Shown piece by piece: positions 1,420 to 19,025 of a stretch of 22,189 nt of DNA. The position numbers and the translations under genes are program-made. This DNA comes from a virus (lineage: Duplodnaviria; Heunggongvirae; Uroviricota; Caudoviricetes). Where the stretch lies: the IMG/VR virus record IMGVR_UViG_2687453530_000003; one strand, written 5' to 3'. A model generated the notes under the pieces. That model saw only the letters and a program-made list of their open reading frames with translations, did not search any database and was not told where the DNA came from. Numbering within the stretch: position 1 is the stretch's first letter; the number at the start of each line of letters is the position of its first letter.

Positions 1420-1685
1420 ATTCTTAATCCAAGAACATACTCCCTACCTATAGCAAAATCACTTTTTGAACAAAAGAATAACGTATTTAGGTAATCATTA
1501 CGAATTTACCCTATAGGTGCTACTGGCCATTCAATATCCGGTGCAGTTGTTGTATTAACACGGTTCAGCAACACCCGATACTTTTTCCAGGCTTCCAGCA
1601 ACGAGTTTTCTTCCTCCGTTGCGATCTCCAGCCCAACAACAGTCTGAACGTACCGGGAACAGCCTCCTTCAGGGCTTGAAGGATA

Positions 1686-3938
1686 TCAATGTTCGCTTCC
1701 TGTTAACTGCCGGACAAGTGCAACCAGTTCGCTTACCTGATTTTCCAGAGTGCTGATCCGGGTGCCTGCTGTTGCCAGATTTTTACGTAGCGTTATGTTT
1801 TCCTCTTCCAGCGCGGTAACGCGACCATCTGTTTCACGGGCGACCTGAACAAGTAACCCCGTCACGGCGGCGTAGTCAACATTCAGATAACGTGTTTCTT
1901 CACGTAATTCATTGCCGTCAACCGTTGGTCCCTGCAACTCTTCACCGTAATGAGTAAACGATCCCACAGCTTCTGGTATCGCCTCCATTACTTCCTGTGC
2001 AATAACGCCAGCATAAGGCATCCCGTTTTCCCTGAGCGTGTAGGTGTATCCGTTCATTTTACGGATTGCTTTCGTCGCGTCGCTGATAACGAGAATATCG
2101 TCTTTAAGGTCGCGGTCTGATGACTGATTCAGCGTTGTGCAATTAATAGCGCCATTTACATCAAACAACTGGCCTGCTGACGTTTTTTGCGCATAAAACA
2201 GATACGCAGCAGACGTTCCAACCTCAAAAACGTTTTGTCGATCACTTGATCCCCATACTTTTGCGGCAAATGATAGTTCTGTATTACCTAAGTTCTGTAA
2301 AACAAAACGATTTCCAGTCCCTGTTTGTTTTGTAAGAGTTAAATCAACAGTTGAGTTAACCTCATCCTTGTTGATAGTGAGCGCCTGCGCTTTAGCCCCG
2401 TTAACAGCACCTGTTTTGAGTTGAACCGCGCCGTCATTACCATTTAACAGTATCTCAGCTCCGCTAAAGAAATTTTTTAGCGACAGCATCTTACTTACGC
2501 CGACTGATGAACCCAACGCCCACGCGAGAGAATTACCGGTGCTATCAAACCCACGTACAAAGCAATCCATTTTGCTATAGTCTGACGTGCTTCCAAGGAC
2601 ATCAATTCGCCCTCCGCCAGATTTTACCGGGTTAGATGTGGTTAATGACCTGACAGCAAGATCGGTAGATGAATTGAGATCGTCTACTGTTAGTAATTTC
2701 TTCCATTCCTGCGTCGTTCCATTTTCAATTGTTCTTCCCCAAAAACCGGAATTGCGGCCTCCGAACTGCACAGCATAATTTTTACTAAATTGAACATGAA
2801 TGCCGCCAAGAACCATAGAACCTGCCGGGCCGTTTGTACTGCCTGCAATTGGTATAAATTTATTAATGTTATCAGTATGCTGCGTGTTCCAGTCTCGTCC
2901 TGTTTTTGTAAGCAGTCCTAATGTCGTGTCGAGCGCTTCGGTTAAAGTAAGGTTTTTAAATTTAACTGCGCTACTTTCGCCAAGACTTAAGTTGTTTCGC
3001 GCATCTTCTACTGTTGTCGCACCTGTACCTCCTTGCCCAACAGCTAATGGCAACCAGCCAGTGCCATTATGACAACCCCACAAACCAGATTTGGAAACCT
3101 GTAAGCGTGGTGCGCCTGAAGAATACGTAGAATATACGTAAGTTGTTTCTTTTCCCTCTTCAACCCTTTCTGTTGATACATCTCTCTTCCATTCAGACCA
3201 GGTACCGCTTCCTCCTTCATATATTCGTCTATAAGTAATTCCCGGATTATTATAAGGGTAGTACACCTGAACGCAGGAAGAAGCAGTGTTGGCTCTCGTT
3301 TGGAGCACTATTAAAGCGCCCGCCAGACCGATTGGGTAATTTAATTCTTCTGTTGCGTAAGCGCTCGTTGGTTGTTGATAGAAACCAGAATATTCACCGG
3401 TAAGGGTGTTTAGGTCAGTATTAGCAAGGCCAGCTTTTTGCTCATACATTACCCGCAAGTTCGCACGTGCTTGCTCGATAGTTCTTCCACCAGTACCGCC
3501 CTGGGCTAAACCTAACGGAGACCATTGTCCAGAAGAAGAATCATAAACTCCCCAACTCCCGTTAGTATGGATTTCAAAGAAACGATCACCAGTTGGACCA
3601 TACATACGAGTTGTTGATTCATTTTGACCAAAGCGGCTTAATTCATCTCTGCGGGTATGACGTATCCATTGCGGGCCAGAACTTTGGCTGTAAATGTACG
3701 AATACAATGATTTTGTATCTGAACCAACAAATAGACCGGAATATCTTTTTGTTGACACTTCTGATCTAACTATATAACCAGAAATAAGATTATCACCGGC
3801 ACTAGACGCTACTGATGGATAACCTTTCGCTGAGATGTAAATCCTGACAAATCCAATATAACCTGATGGCTCAACAGAGATATCAGTGCAGGTCAGCCCC
3901 CCACGCCAGAGACGTGTTGCTGTGGCGACCGTCATCAC
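1686..3938 (-). CDS. Tail fibre protein fragment with C-terminal intramolecular chaperone (peptidase S74-like) domain; probably 5'-truncated, with the true N-terminus replaced at a junction inside lom near position 3890
   Basis: 750-aa ORF with GGTG-x-T-x-E-x-AR-x-NL fibre repeat motifs and a C-terminus (DRDLKDDILVISDATKAIRKMNGYTYTL...) typical of self-cleaving fibre/endosialidase chaperone domains; the first ~16 codons overlap lom out of frame. Confidence 0.7.
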   Translation of the reverse strand: MMTVATATRLWRGGLTCTDISVEPSGYIGFVRIYISAKGYPSVASSAGDNLISGYIVRSEVSTKRYSGLFVGSDTKSLYSYIYSQSSGPQWIRHTRRDELSRFGQNESTTRMYGPTGDRFFEIHTNGSWGVYDSSSGQWSPLGLAQGGTGGRTIEQARANLRVMYEQKAGLANTDLNTLTGEYSGFYQQPTSAYATEELNYPIGLAGALIVLQTRANTASSCVQVYYPYNNPGITYRRIYEGGSGTWSEWKRDVSTERVEEGKETTYVYSTYSSGAPRLQVSKSGLWGCHNGTGWLPLAVGQGGTGATTVEDARNNLSLGESSAVKFKNLTLTEALDTTLGLLTKTGRDWNTQHTDNINKFIPIAGSTNGPAGSMVLGGIHVQFSKNYAVQFGGRNSGFWGRTIENGTTQEWKKLLTVDDLNSSTDLAVRSLTTSNPVKSGGGRIDVLGSTSDYSKMDCFVRGFDSTGNSLAWALGSSVGVSKMLSLKNFFSGAEILLNGNDGAVQLKTGAVNGAKAQALTINKDEVNSTVDLTLTKQTGTGNRFVLQNLGNTELSFAAKVWGSSDRQNVFEVGTSAAYLFYAQKTSAGQLFDVNGAINCTTLNQSSDRDLKDDILVISDATKAIRKMNGYTYTLRENGMPYAGVIAQEVMEAIPEAVGSFTHYGEELQGPTVDGNELREETRYLNVDYAAVTGLLVQVARETDGRVTALEEENITLRKNLATAGTRISTLENQVSELVALVRQLTGSEH

Positions 3939-4380
3939 TTCCGGTCAGCACATCGTGCGTTTTCCCCTTATTGTCAGTTACGCGGATATAATCCCCGGAA
4001 AAAGTCGACACACGGCTGTAAGCCACACCCGCCATCGCATACGCGCTGAACCATTCATTCACGCGCACAGACGGCCCCGCCATTACGCTGAACCAGCGGT
4101 TACGAACGGAATCTTCATGCCAGCGGGTATCGCTGTAACGGGTCAGCTGACGATTCTTGTCTCCTGCATAGCTGAATGACGTCACCATCCCCAGTGTGTC
4201 CGTAAACTCATAACGGTATTTCACGTTAATCCCGTTCAGATCATCACTGCCGGGAACGTTCGTCCGGGCATGAAGATACCCCGCGCTCAGCGTGGACTGA
4301 TGTTCAGACGCCCATGCAGGCGCACCGGATACGGCCAGACAAATGGCTGCGGACAAAATGGCGGCATAAAGTTTACGCAT
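3883..4380 (-). CDS. lom: Lom/Ail-family outer-membrane protein, C-terminally truncated (165 aa versus ~206 in lambda; lacks the terminal aromatic beta-barrel signature)
   Basis: Signal peptide MRKLYAAILSAAICLAVSGAPAWA and near-identity to lambda Lom through ...NTSLAWGA, then divergence and a stop. Confidence 0.8.
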   Translation of the reverse strand: MRKLYAAILSAAICLAVSGAPAWASEHQSTLSAGYLHARTNVPGSDDLNGINVKYRYEFTDTLGMVTSFSYAGDKNRQLTRYSDTRWHEDSVRNRWFSVMAGPSVRVNEWFSAYAMAGVAYSRVSTFSGDYIRVTDNKGKTHDVLTGSDDGRHSNTSLAWGADLH

Positions 4381-4446
4381 AATTACCTCTCGCTTTTCTG
4401 CAATAAAAAAGGCGTCATTTCTGACGCCCGTTCTGGGTTATAAAAT

Positions 4447-6401
<1,955 letters not shown>

Positions 6402-6427
<26 letters not shown>

Positions 6428-6947
6428 TCAGCAACCCCGGTATCAGTTCATCCAGCGCGGCTGCTTTGTTCATGGCTTTGATGATATCCCGTTTCAGGAA
6501 ATCAACATGTCGGTTTTCCAGTTCCGGAAAACGCCGCTGCACCGACAGGGGGATCCCGTCGAGAATACTGGCAATTTCACCTGCGATCCGCGACAACACG
6601 AAAGTACAGAATGCGGTTTCCACCACTTCAGCGGAGTCTCTGGCATTCTTCAGTTCCTGTGCGTCGGCCTGCGCACGCGTAAGTCGATGGCGTTCGTACT
6701 CAATAGTCCCTGGCTGGAGATCTGCCTCGCTGGCCTGCCGCAGTTCTTCAACCTCCCGGCGCAGCTTTTCGTTCTCAATTTCAGCATCCCTTTCGGCATA
6801 CCATTTTATGACGGCGGCAGAGTCATAAAGCACCTCATTACCCTTGCCACCGCCTCGCAGAACGGGCATTCCCTGTTCCTGCCAGTTCTGAATGGTACGG
6901 ATACTCGCACCGAAAATGTCAGCCAGCTGCTTTTTGTTGACTTCCAT
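6402..6947 (-). CDS. nu1: Terminase small subunit Nu1 (NohD-like)
   Basis: 181 aa, MEVNKKQLADIFGASIRTIQNWQEQGMPV..., the winged-HTH N-terminus of lambda Nu1. Confidence 0.9.
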
Positions 6948-8597: not shown

Positions 8598-8887
8598 ATC
8601 ATAACGTCCGGTTTCTTCCGTGTCAGCACCGGGGCGTTGGCATAATGCAATACGTGTACGCGCTAAACCCTGTGTGCATCGTTTTTAATTATTCCCGGAC
8701 ACTCCCGCAGAGAAGTTCCCCGTCAGGGCTGTGGACATAGTTAATCCGGGAATACAATGACGATTCATCGCACCTGACATACATTAATAAATATTAACAA
8801 TATGAAATTTCAACTCATTGTTTAGGGTTTGTTTAATTTTCTACACATACGATTCTGCGAACTTCAAAAAGCATCGGGAATAACACC

Positions 8888-9181
8888 ATGAAAAAAATGC
8901 TACTCGCTACTGCGCTGGCCCTGCTTATTACAGGATGTGCTCAACAGACGTTTACTGTTCAAAACAAACCGGCAGCAGTAGCACCAAAGGAAACCATCAC
9001 CCATCATTTCTTCGTTTCTGGAATTGGGCAGAAGAAAACTGTCGATGCAGCCAAAATTTGTGGCGGCGCAGAAAATGTTGTTAAAACAGAAACCCAGCAA
9101 ACATTCGTAAATGGATTGCTCGGTTTTATTACTTTAGGCATTTATACTCCGCTGGAAGCGCGTGTGTATTGCTCACAATAA
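8888..9181 (+). CDS. bor: Bor lipoprotein (serum-resistance / Iss family)
   Basis: 97 aa, lipobox LLITGC, convergent with the lysis genes as in lambda and DLP12. Confidence 0.85.
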   Translation: MKKMLLATALALLITGCAQQTFTVQNKPAAVAPKETITHHFFVSGIGQKKTVDAAKICGGAENVVKTETQQTFVNGLLGFITLGIYTPLEARVYCSQ

Positions 9182-9212
9182 TTGCATGAGTTGCCCATCG
9201 ATATGGGCAACT

Positions 9213-9674
9213 CTATCTGCACTGCTCATTAATATACTTCTGGGTTCCTTCCAGTTGTTTTTGCATAGTGATCAGCCTCTCTCTGAGGGTGAAATAATCC
9301 CGTTCAGCGGTGTCTGCCAGTCGGGGGGAGGCTGCATTATCCACGCCGGAGGCGGTGGTGGCTTCACGCACTGACTGACAGACTGCTTTGATGTGCAACC
9401 GACGACGACCAGCGGCAACATCATCACGCAGAGCATCATTTTCAGCTTTAGCATCAGCTAACTCCTTCGTGTATTTTGCATCGAGCGCAGCAACATCACG
9501 CTGACGCATCTGCATGTCAGTAATTGCCGCGTTCGCCAGCTTCAGTTCTCTGGCATTTTTGTCGCGCTGGGCTTTGTAGGTAATGGCGTTATCACGGTAA
9601 TGATTAACAGCCCATGACAGGTAGACGATGATGCAGATAACCAGAGCGGAGATAATCGCGGTTACTCTGTTCAT
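9213..9674 (-). CDS. Rz: Rz i-spanin
   Basis: [17 protein letters not shown]... near-identical to lambda Rz; start set at the internal Met of the 157-aa ORF. Confidence 0.9.
9272..9454 (-). CDS. Rz1: Rz1 o-spanin lipoprotein, embedded in Rz in the +1 frame
   Basis: 60 aa with lipobox VVVGC and a PPPPP tract, identical in layout to lambda Rz1. Confidence 0.85.
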
Positions 9675-10168
9675 TGCTGACCCCACAAACAGATTTCACG
9701 CTCAATCTCACGACGAGTCATGAGACCTTTCCATTGCTTACCGCCAGCATATGTCCAGCGACGTAGCTGATCACATGCGCCTTTGATATCGCCCTGGTTT
9801 ATTTTGCGAAGAAGCGTCGATGTTCTGAAATTGCCAGCACCCACGTTGTAAACGAATGAGTAAAGAGCGCCGCGCGTTGTTTCCGGTATATCGACTTTGA
9901 TGTACGGGTTAATTTGTCTGGCGACAGTGGCAAGGTCTTTATTCAAGAGTGCTTTGCATTCTGCTTTGGTATACGTTTTACCGAGCATGATGTCTTTTCC
10001 GGTGTGTCCGTGACATACAGTCCATACGCCAACGATATCTTTGTATGGTACGTAGCTGACACCTTCCAGACCATCGTTACCACTTGGGCCAGTAATTAAC
10101 ACTGATGCTATAGCAATTGCTCCGCCACCAATAGCAGCAGCAACGGCTTTTCGTAATGATGGAGGCAT
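9671..10168 (-). CDS. R: SAR endolysin (T4-lysozyme fold, phage 21 R type)
   Basis: 165 aa; N-terminal weakly hydrophobic Gly/Ala-rich signal-anchor-release segment [18 protein letters not shown] followed by a lysozyme domain. Confidence 0.9.
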
Positions 10169-10383
10169 TATTCACCTCTCGCAGCCTTGCGCTTATCTTC
10201 TTTAATCTTGAAATAAAGGTTTGTCAGGTACGTCAGCAGGCCAAATACCAGGCTACCCAGCACACCTATTGCTGCCCACTGTGAGGGCGTGACTTTATCG
10301 AGCAGCTGTAAAAACCAGTAACCGGCACTACCTGCTGAGGTGCCATAGGCGACACCCGTTGTTAACTTATCCATGGATTTCAT
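10168..10383 (-). CDS. S: Pinholin S21 (71 codons, with dual start MKSMDK giving antiholin and holin)
   Basis: [26 protein letters not shown]...[17 protein letters not shown] matches the phage 21 pinholin; the 5' extension of the ORF is non-coding. Confidence 0.85.
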
Positions 10384-10512
10384 AACCCCACCTCGCAGAC
10401 AAAGCGGGTGTAAATTGAGGGAATACAACGTATCGCAAAAAAGCAGAAACGTAACAGACTCGGAGTCAGTGAATAACTCAGGTATTGGGTTATCAGCTAA
10501 TATCGAGACTCA

Positions 10513-10543
10513 AAAAATGGAAAAACCCGCTCGACGGCGGGTT
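10513..10543 (-). terminator. Intrinsic terminator on the minus strand, candidate tR'-like late-leader terminator upstream of S
   Basis: Minus strand reads AAACCCGC-CGTCGA-GCGGGTTTTTCCATTTTTTG: 8-bp GC-rich stem plus U-tract. Confidence 0.45.
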
Positions 10544-10972
10544 TAAGCTGTGTGACGAAGTAACCACTCTTAACAGCATAACCAATTTTTTACGTACGTA
10601 AACCACTAAATGATATTTGCGAGAATGCTACCGAGTATTGAAAACACCACTACAAATACATAAGAAAATCTCAACAAATAACCAATAAATAATTTCCAGT
10701 GTTATTTTTAGCCGGTTTAAATTGAACCTTCAAATTATAGAGCACTTATAAATAACAGCCGTTAATATAAATTGGCTAATAGATTTATTTTTATTCAGCC
10801 AAGAGCCATGAATAGGATTCGATAGAAAAAAGTTCAGATAAAAATAGAGATCTACTTCACAAATCAAACGAGAAACTAAAACTTACATCTTGAAATAATC
10901 ACATTGATTAGATGAATATTTATCGCGCAGTGACATCATTTTTTAATAATAGTTCAAAAAAAAGGGCTCACG

Positions 10973-12055
10973 ATGAAAAAATTAACAGTGGCAATTTCTG
11001 CTGTAGCTGCATCAGTACTGATGGCGATGTCTGCTCAGGCAGCTGAAATTTATAATAAAGACAGTAACAAGCTGGATCTGTACGGGAAAGTTAATGCCAA
11101 GCACTACTTCTCCTCTAATGATGCAGATGATGGTGATACTACTTATGCCCGTCTTGGCTTCAAAGGTGAAACCCAAATCAACGATCAACTGACTGGTTTC
11201 GGTCAGTGGGAATATGAATTCAAAGGCAACCGCGCTGAATCTCAAGGTTCCTCCAAAGATAAAACCCGTCTTGCCTTCGCTGGCCTGAAATTCGGTGACT
11301 ACGGCTCCATCGATTACGGCCGTAACTACGGTGTAGCATACGACATCGGTGCATGGACCGACGTTCTGCCAGAATTCGGTGGCGATACCTGGACCCAAAC
11401 AGATGTATTCATGACTGGTCGCACCACAGGTGTTGCAACTTATCGTAACAACGACTTCTTTGGTCTGGTTGATGGCCTGAACTTTGCAGCTCAGTATCAG
11501 GGCAAAAATGACCGAAATGAAGTAACTGAAGCTAATGGCGATGGTTTCGGTTTCTCAACTACTTATGAGTATGAAGGATTCGGCGTGGGTGCAACCTATG
11601 CTAAATCTGATCGCACTAATAATCAGGTTATCTACGGTAACAACGGTCTGAATGCTTCTGGTCAAAATGCTGAAGTATGGGCAGCTGGTCTGAAATATGA
11701 TGCGAACAACATCTATCTGGCCACCACCTATTCTGAAACCCAGAACATGACTGTTTTTGGTAATAACCATATTGCCAACAAAGCACAAAACTTCGAAGCT
11801 GTTGCACAATATCAGTTCGACTTCGGCCTGCGTCCATCCGTTGCTTACCTGCATTCTAAAGGAAAAGACTTGGGTGTTTGGGGTGATCAGGACCTGGTTG
11901 AATATGTTGATGTAGGTGCAACCTATTACTTCAACAAAAATATGTCCACTTTTATTGACTACAAAATCAACCTGATTGATAAGAGCGATTTCACGAAAGC
12001 ATCTGGCGTTGCTACCGATGATATCGTTGCTGTAGGTATGGTTTACCAGTTCTAA
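10973..12055 (+). CDS. nmpC: General porin of the OmpC/OmpF family, phage-borne NmpC/Lc type (lysogenic-conversion moron)
   Basis: 360 aa, signal peptide [30 protein letters not shown]..., C-terminal ...VAVGMVYQF; sits on the strand opposite the lysis genes as in DLP12. Confidence 0.9.
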
Positions 12056-12190
12056 TTTGATTACTAAAAGATATGTTGTGGGAGGCTTTGCCTCCCCAAC
12101 ATATAAGTGGCTCCCTCAAGCCACTTCCTTTAGAAGCACAACCTTGCTTCTAACTATATAAACCTTCTGTTATATATTACCCTTTATTTT

Positions 12191-12217
12191 TGGGGGCGTT
12201 TCAACGCCCCATTTTTA
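12191..12217 (+). terminator. Rho-independent terminator after the porin gene, last of a series of four hairpins
   Basis: GGGGCG-TTTCAA-CGCCCC followed by ATTTTT; upstream hairpins AGTGGCT-N6-AGCCACT and AGAAGCA-N6-TGCTTCT. Confidence 0.6.
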
Positions 12218-12243
12218 ATAACTTTTAGTAAATAATTGGCGTA

Positions 12244-12465
12244 TTAATTAGAGTTATTAACAACGATATCCATCTCTAACCGGATATCTAATGCCATTAA
12301 CATCCCTTCAATTATGCCCTCAGCCTTTTGTAACCTTTTCCCGATATAACCATCAGAGCAGCAATGCTTACCTGCCAGTGACATGAATGTCATACCGACT
12401 ATATAATAATCTACTAATAAATCGTGCAAATCGCTGTTGTTCTTTTTCAGACGGGCCATGCACAA
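12244..12465 (-). CDS. Hypothetical 73-aa ORF, possibly a remnant of the sieB region; weak
   Basis: ORF only; located where sieB would lie relative to orf28 and ral, but the frame and length do not match. Confidence 0.25.
12379..12407 (+). promoter_or_regulatory. Candidate sigma-70 promoter (TGACAT-17 bp-TATAAT) reading into orf28-ral-ea10-cIII-kil-exo
   Basis: Hexamers and spacing read directly from the sequence; no experimental support. Confidence 0.3.
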
Positions 12466-12500
12466 TCTTTACTACCGCAATCCACTATTTAAGGTGATAC

Positions 12501-12587
12501 ATGGAAGAAGAATTTGAAGAGTTCGAAGAGCATCCTCAGGATGTGATGGAACAATACCAGGACTATCCGTATGACTACGACTATTGA
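12501..12587 (+). CDS. orf28: orf28-like small acidic protein
   Basis: MEEEFEEFEEHPQDVMEQYQDYPYDYDY, 28 aa, overlapping the ral start as in lambda. Confidence 0.55.
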   Translation: MEEEFEEFEEHPQDVMEQYQDYPYDYDY

Positions 12588-12771
12588 TAAAAATCAATGG
12601 TGTGGACAATTCAAGCGATGCAATGGATGCAAGCTGCAATCGGAATGCATGGTTAAGCCTGAAGAAATGTTTCCTGTAATGGATGATGGGAAATATGTCG
12701 ATAAATGGGCAATACGAACGACGGCAATGATTGCCAGAGAACTTGGTAAACAGAACAACAAAGCTGCCTGA
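12571..12771 (+). CDS. ral: Ral restriction-alleviation protein
   Basis: 66 aa, MTTTIDKNQWCGQFKRCNGCKLQSECMVKPEEMFPV..., essentially lambda Ral. Confidence 0.9.
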   Translation: MTTTIDKNQWCGQFKRCNGCKLQSECMVKPEEMFPVMDDGKYVDKWAIRTTAMIARELGKQNNKAA

Positions 12772-12953
12772 TAGTGGCCTTTATTTTTGGCATAAATAAC
12801 AGAATAAACACTGCACTGTGTATTCATTCCAACGAGTGAATACACGGAGCAATGTCGCTCGTAACTAAACAGGAGCCGACTTGTTCTGATTATTGGAAAT
12901 CTTCTTTGCCCTCCAGTGTGAGGGCGATTTTTTATCTATGAGGATATGAATAG

Positions 12954-13322
12954 ATGTCAAACATCAAAAAATACATCATTGATTACGACTGGAAAGCATC
13001 AATAGAAATTGAAATCGATCATGACGTAATGACAGAGGAAAAACTTCACCAGATTAATAATTTCTGGTCAGACTCTGAATACCGACTCAATAAACACGGC
13101 TCTGTATTAAATGCTGTATTAATCATGCTGGCGCAACATGCTCTGCTTATAGCAATTTCAAGCGACTTAAATGCATATGGTGTTGTGTGTGAGTTCGACT
13201 GGAATGATGGAAATGGTCAGGAAGGATGGCCTCCAATGGATGGTAGCGAAGGAATAAGAATTACCGATATCGATACATCAGGAATATTTGATCCAGATGA
13301 TATGACTATCAAAGCCGCCTGA
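12954..13322 (+). CDS. ea10: Ea10-like protein
   Basis: 122 aa at the lambda ea10 position between ral and cIII. Confidence 0.7.
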   Translation: MSNIKKYIIDYDWKASIEIEIDHDVMTEEKLHQINNFWSDSEYRLNKHGSVLNAVLIMLAQHALLIAISSDLNAYGVVCEFDWNDGNGQEGWPPMDGSEGIRITDIDTSGIFDPDDMTIKAA

Positions 13323-13394
13323 GCGCGGCGTTACCGCATACCAATAACGCTTCACTCGAGGCGTTTTTCGTTATGTATAAATAAGGAGCACACC

Positions 13395-13559
13395 ATGCAA
13401 TATGCCATTGCAGGGTGGCCTGTTGCTGGCTGCCCTTCCGAATCTTTACTTGAACGAATCACCCGTAAATTACGTGACGGATGGAAACGCCTTATCGACA
13501 TACTTAATCAGCCAGGAGTCCCAAAAAATGGATCAAACACTTATGGCTATCCAGACTAA
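13395..13559 (+). CDS. cIII: cIII, FtsH inhibitor
   Basis: 54 aa, MQYAIAGWPVAGCPSESLLERITRKLRDGWKRLIDILNQPGVPKNGSNTYGYPD. Confidence 0.9.
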   Translation: MQYAIAGWPVAGCPSESLLERITRKLRDGWKRLIDILNQPGVPKNGSNTYGYPD

Positions 13560-13680
13560 ATTCACTATCGCCACTTTTATTGGCGATGAAAAGATGTTTC
13601 GTGAGGCCGTCGACGCTTATAAAAAATGGATATTAATACTGAAACTGAGATCAAGCAAAAGCATTCACTACCCCCCTTAA
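13528..13680 (+). CDS. kil: Kil, host cell-division inhibitor (50 codons here; the stop appears shifted by the adjacent deletion junction)
   Basis: MDQTLMAIQTKFTIATFIGDEKMFREAVDAYKKWILILKLRSSKSIH..., overlapping the cIII end as in lambda. Confidence 0.8.
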   Translation: MDQTLMAIQTKFTIATFIGDEKMFREAVDAYKKWILILKLRSSKSIHYPP

Positions 13681-17796: not shown

Positions 17797-18702
17797 CTAT
17801 ATTTCCAGACATCTGTTATCACTTAACCCATTACAAGCCCGCTGCCGCAGATATTCCCGTGGCGAGCGATAACCCAGCGCACTATGCGGATGCCATTCGT
17901 TATAATGCTCGAACGCCTCTGCAAGGTTCTTTGCTGCCGTTAACCCGTCTGGTTTGGGCATGATACTGATGTAGTCACGCTTTATCGTTTTCACGAAGCT
18001 CTCTGCTATTCCGTTACTCTCCGGACTCCGCACCGCCGTGTTCTTCGGTTCAAGTCCCAACATCCGGGCGAACTGGCGTGTTTCATTAGCCCGGTAGCAT
18101 GAACCATTATCCGTCAGCCACTCCACTGGAGACGACGGAAGATCGTTGCCGAAGCGGCGTTCCACCGCTCCCAGCATGACGTCCTGTACTGTTTCACTGT
18201 TGAAGCCGCCGGTAGTGACCGCCCAGTGCAGTGCCTCACGATCACAGCAGTCCAGCGCGAACGTGACACGCAGTCTCTCTCCGTTATCACAGCAGAACTC
18301 GAACCCGTCAGAGCACCATCGCTGATTGCTTTCTTTCACGGCCACTCTGCCTGTATGTGCCCGTTTCGATGGCGGTACAGCAGGTTTTCGCTCAAGCAAC
18401 AGCGCATTCTGGCGCATGATCCGGTAAACACGTTTGGCATTGATCGCAGGCATACCATCAAGTTCTGCCTGTCTGCGAAGCAGCGCCCATACCCGACGAT
18501 AACCATACGTGGGCAGCTCTCCGATAACATGGTGTATACGGAGAAGCACATCCGTATCATCAGTGTGACGACTGCGGCGGCCATCCATCCAGTCATCGGT
18601 TCGTCTGAGAATGACGTGCAACTGCGCACGCGACACCCGGAGACAACGGCTGACTAAGCTTACTCCCCATCCCCGGGCAATAAGGGCGCGTGCGCTATCC
18701 AC
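17797..18702 (-). CDS. insD: IS2 transposase OrfB (InsD; DDE catalytic domain, expressed as an OrfAB fusion by -1 frameshift)
   Basis: 301 aa, [34 protein letters not shown].... Confidence 0.9.
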
Positions 18703-19025
18703 TTTTTTGCCCGTCCATATTCAACGGCTTCTTTGAGGAGTTCATTTTCCATCGTTTTCTTGCCGAGCAGGCGCTGGAGTTCTTTAATCTGCTTCATGGC
18801 GGCAGCAAGTTCAGAGGCAGGAACAACCTGTTCTCCGGCGGCGACAGCAGTAAGACTTCCTTCCTGGTATTGCTTACGCCAGAGAAATAACTGGCTGGCT
18901 GCTACACCATGTTGCCGGGCAACGAGGGAGACCGTCATCCCCGGTTCAAAGCTCTGCTGAACAATTGCGATCTTTTCCTGTGTGGTACGCCGTCTGCGTT
19001 TCTCCGGCCCTAAGACATCAATCAT
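18660..19025 (-). CDS. insC: IS2 OrfA (InsC; HTH DNA-binding regulator)
   Basis: [53 protein letters not shown].... Confidence 0.9.

Follow-up and report, generated by a model that had tools for sequence, protein, structure and literature searches.

A promoter-like motif antisense to a truncated Q gene upstream of orf28–ral in a defective lambdoid prophage

Prophage context and the deletion junction

We analysed a stretch of 22,189 nucleotides (the window; IMG/VR record IMGVR_UViG_2687453530_000003) in which the 3′ remnant of the Q antiterminator gene quuD, read on the minus strand, lies between an NmpC/OmpC-like porin gene and the lambda-type genes orf28, ral, ea10, cIII and kil, all on the plus strand (Table 1). 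RefSeq annotates the quuD remnant as a pseudogene without its N-terminus. A defective lambdoid prophage adjoining ybhC at att-lambda matches the window with 100% identity in APEC O78 and in about 20 further E. coli genomes, mostly poultry-derived. The terminase, tail-tip, lom and tail-fibre genes at 1500–6500 are truncated pseudogenes, which marks the prophage as heavily decayed, and an IS2 element lies at about 17797–19025, between ea22-like genes and xis.

Alignment of the window with the viable phage ev243 is colinear and shows 8,635 bp missing at an overlap of GCAC. Window positions 8831–12463 correspond to ev243 44860–41231 (Bor, Rz, R, S, the porin and the 3′ part of Q), and positions 12460–13678 correspond to ev243 32595–31377 (orf28, ral, ea10, cIII and kil). 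The deleted 8,635 bp held sieB, N, nutL, pL, rexB, rexA, cI, cro, cII, O, P and ren, and also took the nin genes, rusA, ylcG and the first 54 codons of Q. In lambda coordinates the junction falls at 34398, 41 bp upstream of orf28, and the promoter-like motif described below lies 51 bp from it. We found no trace of the deleted 8.6 kb or of pL/OL anywhere in the window, and no homology to lambda 34399–38500; a tblastn search of the window gave no hit for N, the boxB pattern of nutL was absent, and the window contained neither cI coding capacity nor operator half-sites. A reading made earlier from the sequence alone (the sequence-only reading) had described this prophage as lacking pL and cI; colinearity with ev243 and the window-wide searches confirm both losses and add that of N. 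A second deletion, of 959 bp, joins lambda 33180 to 32221 at a TT microhomology, with the loss of gam and of 590 bp at the 5′ end of bet.

Table 1 Features of the window from the porin gene to kil, with positions counted from the first nucleotide of the window
Feature	Position	Strand	Remarks
NmpC/OmpC-like porin gene	10973–12055	+	Intact; co-oriented with orf28–ral; possible source of read-through
Intrinsic terminator of the porin gene	12193–12216	+	Fold z-score −3.0; K-12 equivalent is a mapped 3′ end, followed by a Rho-dependent region
quuD (Q antiterminator) 3′ remnant	12244–12462	−	Residues ~55–127 of 127; PF06530 positions 56–118
−35-like hexamer gTGACA	12378–12383	+	5/6 against TTGACA; reverse complement of quuD codons M-S-L
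−10-like hexamer TATAAT	12402–12407	+	6/6; reverse complement of quuD codons Y-Y-I
Predicted transcription start	12413–12416	+	6–9 nt past the −10; predicted from the hexamer positions alone
Deletion junction	12460–12463		4-bp GCAC microhomology; quuD codon ~55 joined to lambda 34398; ev243 41231 joined to 32595
orf28	12501–12587	+	28-residue acidic peptide, uncharacterised; intact; AAGGTGA Shine–Dalgarno sequence upstream
ral	12571–12771	+	Antirestriction/modification-enhancing protein, 66 aa; intact; E38D relative to lambda
Intrinsic terminator, ral/ea10 interval	12906–12933	+	8-bp GC-rich stem, then U6
ea10 (DUF2528)	12954–13322	+	
Intrinsic terminator, ea10/cIII interval	13346–13370	+	8-bp stem, then U5; fold z-score −3.9
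cIII	13395–13559	+	Identical to lambda CIII
kil	13528–13680	+	47/47 lambda residues conserved; stop lost

The plus-strand block from orf28 to kil is 98.9% identical to lambda 34398–33180 and keeps the lambda gene order, with terminators between the genes. The lambda stop codon of kil, TAA, has become TAC, which adds the residues YPP before a new TAA made at the second deletion junction (13669–13680). The sequence-only reading had asked whether kil carries inactivating changes relative to lambda; it does not, since the changes amount to this three-residue extension of an otherwise complete protein. The cIII thermoregulator element (Rfam Lambda_thermo, RF01804; 13382–13440, plus strand) is intact and scores 88.5 bits.

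The promoter-like motif and its coding origin

The sequence-only reading had proposed that a near-consensus sigma-70 promoter is aimed at orf28 and ral. The elements on which it rested, TGACAT at 12379–12384 and TATAAT 17 bp further on, are present exactly where it had placed them and in the orientation it gave, and TATAAT ends 94 bp before the orf28 ATG, as against the roughly 95 bp claimed. The pair nevertheless fits the sigma-70 consensus better in another register, in which gTGACA is followed by an 18-bp spacer and TATAAT, for a total of 11 matches out of 12 (5/6 plus 6/6). In this register the spacer lies within the sigma-70 range of 16–18 bp and above its optimum. The −10 hexamer has the A at position 2 and the T at position 6 expected of a sigma-70 site, and inspection of the sequence revealed no extended −10 TG. 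An 18-bp spacer and a G at the first position of the −35 weaken a promoter without abolishing it. Fold prediction for the 87-nt leader showed no strong or unusual structure.

The motif is the sole match of at least 11/12 in the window when both strands are scanned. We compared this count with 300 dinucleotide-preserving shuffles of the window, which gave a mean of 0.44 such sites per shuffled window and at least one site in 35% of shuffles. Looser promoter matches between 9000 and 17000 numbered 6, against 14.1 expected, and so are depleted if anything. We conclude that the frequency of the motif in the 22-kb window is no higher than chance. An Rfam scan returned no match at the motif. A perfect palindrome, TGACAT-GA-ATGTCA (12379–12392), overlaps the −35, and a second, TATATA (12400–12405), lies in the −10. 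Both are probably coincidental by-products of quuD codons (M-T-F-M-S and Y-Y-I, respectively), and the −35 palindrome resembles no operator that our analysis recognised.

The motif sits antisense within the truncated quuD coding sequence. It is not an intergenic promoter; it is part of a dead gene, and the deletion brought it to its present place. Intact K-12 quuD carries the same stretch as GTGACA-18-CATAAT, and the lone difference changes the encoded residue to Val, not Ile. The T at 12402 is the minority (Ile) allele, with K-12 and phage ev243 both having C (CATAAT, Val). We found the quuD segment in 1,726 E. coli genomes among 5,426 complete genomes, and the exact TATAAT version in 67 of the 1,726. 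Just 21 of these 67 have the deletion junction, in identical form in all 21, and the three TATAAT genomes without the junction that we inspected all have a full-length quuD. Because TATAAT also occurs in intact quuD genes, the allele predates the deletion, and these genome comparisons identify it as a standing Ile/Val polymorphism. On the same grounds we reject a C-to-T change that created TATAAT after the deletion.

The position of the motif within a Q gene raised the possibility that it is a conserved antisense promoter which down-regulates Q in intact phage, in the manner of lambda paQ, and was only secondarily put upstream of ral. Besides its antisense placement, this idea has in its favour that matches of 10–11/12 are found in about 1,700 E. 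coli genomes with a DLP12-type quuD; however, those quuD copies are nearly identical overall, so that the shared motif is uninformative on selection. We looked at an alignment of nine Q alleles, with Q genes 75–88% identical to quuD. The −35 is replaced by GCGCCA in Lambda_2E9, H-19B, P13803, VT2phi_272 and 933W, the −10 is replaced by CGTAAT, with loss of the key A, in the Q alleles of Stx phages (H-19B/933W), and the Q gene of SfIV has neither hexamer; of the Q genes of H-19B, 933W, Lambda_2E9 and SfIV, all of which lack the −35, most have lost the −10 as well. Across these divergent alleles the hexamers are not conserved, and nothing points to a promoter under selection. Nor is there a CII box beside the −35, as no TTGC-N6-TTGC repeats occur in 12360–12400, and those tables of a 3,376-dataset transcriptome compendium (PMC10392735) that we searched contain no antisense quuD transcript. 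The loss of hexamers in divergent Q alleles largely refutes a conserved paQ-like function, which we reject as barely credible.

Terminators on either side of the motif

The porin gene upstream is of the NmpC/OmpC/Lc type and is intact here, whereas in K-12 an IS5 element interrupts nmpC. A very AT-rich stretch (27–30% GC at 10600–11000) lies before the porin gene in the window, and the porin may be an expressed lysogenic-conversion gene. On the opposite strand, a DLP12-type late promoter pR′ appears to survive at 12160–12215 (minus strand); the wild-type K-12 start at 574416 (+) corresponds to window position 12167 (−). Because Q is truncated, the lysis genes essD, rrrD and rzpD (10428–9213) can no longer be switched on.

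Published K-12 maps place terminators between the porin gene and the motif. Term-seq 3′ ends at the porin terminators lie at 574476 and 574366/7, equivalent to window positions 12107 and 12216/7, and a Rho-dependent termination region lies at 574331, equivalent to 12252 (PMC7815308). Given this Rho region, antisense quuD RNA is, by analogy with K-12, exposed to Rho, and transcription that runs on from the porin gene is cut short upstream of the motif; the action of Rho thus argues for low output in vivo. On the strand leaving the porin gene, K-12 also has a Cappable-seq 5′ end at 574458, between the 3′ ends at 574476 and 574366/7, and the corresponding part of the window (within 12107–12252, plus strand) may give a short transcript of some 90 nt that is antisense to pR′.

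These data bear on a further explanation, that orf28 and ral are transcribed mainly by read-through from the porin gene and not from the motif. The porin gene is intact and runs in the same direction, and K-12 has abundant 3′ ends at the porin terminators with a Rho region just past them, which shows that read-through does reach antisense quuD to some extent. Such transcripts would nevertheless have to pass at least two mapped 3′ ends, one of them a strong hairpin with a U-tract, and then the Rho termination region upstream of the motif, and the 250-nt untranslated stretch of antisense quuD favours Rho. We consider a predominant contribution from porin read-through very unlikely.

Downstream of the motif, the sequence-only reading had carried the transcript through ral into cIII and kil, provided that the promoter is active and that neither terminators nor silencing block it, such that the cell would constitutively make Kil, which inhibits division, and the FtsH inhibitor CIII. 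All of these genes are intact and share one orientation, cIII does not differ from its lambda counterpart, kil has all 47 lambda residues and only a 3-aa tail in addition, and the thermoregulator element of cIII is preserved, all of which is compatible with that model. It is opposed by the two canonical intrinsic terminators between ral and cIII (Table 1), which, from their predicted hairpins, we take to be the lambda tL2 cluster (ral to bet) described by Luk and Szybalski. We found no usable coordinates for lambda tL2/tL3 in the literature, and terminators are not annotated in the lambda records of GenBank. Lambda reads through these terminators only when N acts at nutL; with both deleted here, no antitermination is available. 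With two terminators after ral, and N and nutL gone, constitutive production of CIII and Kil is unlikely, as is the proposed read-through. Kil blocks FtsZ assembly and is toxic, and 21 identical genomes have kept kil intact, which suits a poorly expressed gene better than a constitutively expressed one. We judge the model of read-through as far as kil to be highly improbable.

Activity of the motif and comparison with known systems

We next considered whether the motif fires at all. GC content is 35–41% across 11900–13300, which is prophage DNA. In the data of Forrest et al. 2022 (PMC8894471), K-12 ybcQ (quuD) is in the list of H-NS-bound genes, with a log2FC of +1.9 in Δhns cells, and among the plus-strand start lists those of Δhns and Δhns pRok, but not that of the wild type, contain K-12 starts at 574181 and 574183 (+), inside the −10 patch. 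The sequence-only reading had named H-NS silencing as grounds for discarding its promoter. The listing of the K-12 homologue as H-NS-bound and its derepression point that way, but the starts seen only in Δhns cells are on the strand opposite to that of the motif, and the H-NS data are from K-12, where the right-hand flank differs and the −10 is the weaker CATAAT. By analogy with the homologous K-12 locus, the candidate promoter is probably weak or H-NS-silenced in vivo.

The K-12 equivalent of the predicted start is at about 574169 on the minus strand of NC_000913.3. We found no entry for a start there in the accessible Cappable-seq supplement tables (PMC4782308) and none in the accessible part of the ROSE supplement (PMC10301672), and a literature search yielded nothing on antisense transcription of quuD. 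The absence of a motif-strand start in the tables searched counts weakly against firing.

A second consideration is what a transcript would do for the host. The targets of Ral are type IA systems such as EcoKI, whose de novo methylation it enhances (PMC12707154). The yjiS–yjiA interval of APEC O78 (NC_020163.1, 592927–597017) is taken up by a penicillin G acylase gene and is free of restriction genes, whereas the same interval in K-12 holds mcrBC, hsdSMR and mrr; the whole immigration-control region is missing from APEC O78. Since hsdRMS is absent from this canonical locus, Ral is probably without a target in APEC O78, which undercuts the relevance to host physiology that the sequence-only reading had attached to Ral. 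The worry that motivated the question, constitutive CIII and Kil in the host, is likewise undercut by the terminators, by the loss of N and nutL and by likely H-NS silencing, and the practical importance of the motif is small.

Taken together, we favour, with moderate confidence, the view that the motif is an accidental, cryptic promoter-like by-product of the quuD coding sequence, which could at most drive orf28 and ral and is probably weak or silenced. The −35 is supplied by the antisense of Met-Ser-Leu codons and the −10 by the antisense of Tyr-Tyr-Ile codons. One 8,635-bp deletion at GCAC microhomology, in an ev243-like lambdoid prophage at att-lambda, removed everything from sieB through Q codon 54 and left the motif 94 bp upstream of orf28–ral. 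In principle, RNA polymerase could initiate near 12414 and yield an orf28–ral RNA of roughly 500 nt, terminated at 12906–12933, with little or no transcription into cIII or kil, and any Ral so made would lack a type IA restriction target, in APEC O78 at least. On its sequence, the motif is an ordinary candidate for a cryptic intragenic promoter.

Sites with an 11/12 match, a perfect TATAAT and an AT-rich discriminator usually initiate in E. coli, and judged by these features real activity of the motif is possible. It may thus be an active constitutive sigma-70 promoter caught by the deletion, from which the lineage would make Orf28 and Ral in a moron-like fashion while the terminators spare cIII and kil. 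Apart from the match itself and its perfect −10, this reading draws support from the leader free of strong structure, from the good Shine–Dalgarno sequence of orf28 and from the integrity of both orf28 and ral; translation from 87 nt past the start would also shield the transcript from Rho. However, the K-12 homologue is listed as H-NS-bound, no motif-strand start appears in the K-12 tables searched, the allele is older than the deletion and so gives no sign of selection, and the type IA hsd target of Ral is missing from its canonical locus in APEC O78, which leaves no evident benefit. We regard an active promoter as somewhat unlikely. If the motif is active, it would be a clean natural case in which a deletion has made a spurious antisense promoter in a dead gene into a promoter for intact phage genes, and would open a route to studying the uncharacterised Orf28.

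A stronger form of the same idea is that the deletion made a repressor-independent unit, through which a poultry-associated E. coli lineage constitutively expresses Orf28 and Ral from a captured antisense Q promoter. We consider this very unlikely. If it were true, any benefit retained in a host without a type IA system would point to a new activity of Orf28 or Ral.

Returning to the favoured reading, a cryptic by-product of quuD, we compared the locus with known systems. The genes downstream of the motif are those of the lambda pL early-left operon, as orf28, ral, ea10, cIII, kil and their terminators share about 99% identity with lambda and follow its order. In contrast to that operon, pL, the OL1–3 operators, N and nutL are absent here, and the motif shares neither sequence nor origin with pL, lacks a repressor operator and is unable to support antitermination. 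The motif does not belong to the pL system.

Lambda paQ, a CII-activated promoter inside gene Q, resembles the motif in being an antisense promoter-like element in a Q antiterminator gene. The two differ in that the Q family here is PF06530, not that of lambda Q, and the motif belongs to the 3′ half of its gene. Moreover, the motif is near-consensus for sigma-70 and not CII-dependent, lacks TTGC repeats and is not conserved in related Q alleles.

In the Rac prophage, sbcA-type rearrangements activate recET and lar, as shown genetically. The prophage described here resembles such sbcA-type fusions, in that a rearrangement in a defective prophage puts repressor-independent signals before early-left genes that include a ral-like antirestriction gene; activation in Rac is a genetic result, whereas promoter activity here is predicted from sequence.

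The motif works like the spurious intragenic or antisense promoters, silenced by H-NS, of AT-rich genes that E. coli acquired horizontally (Singh et al. 2014, PMC3923964; Forrest et al. 2022, PMC8894471); Rho, too, keeps such promoters quiet. Like them, the motif consists of antisense −10 and −35 elements derived from AT-rich prophage coding sequence. The K-12 homologue is listed as H-NS-bound and is derepressed in Δhns cells, and on the opposite strand the same patch contains a K-12 start seen only in Δhns cells. Unlike those promoters, the motif lies in a host gene that is a truncated pseudogene, and the deletion has put the intact, translatable orf28 and ral directly downstream, so that the transcript here would be a coding mRNA, in contrast to non-coding noise.
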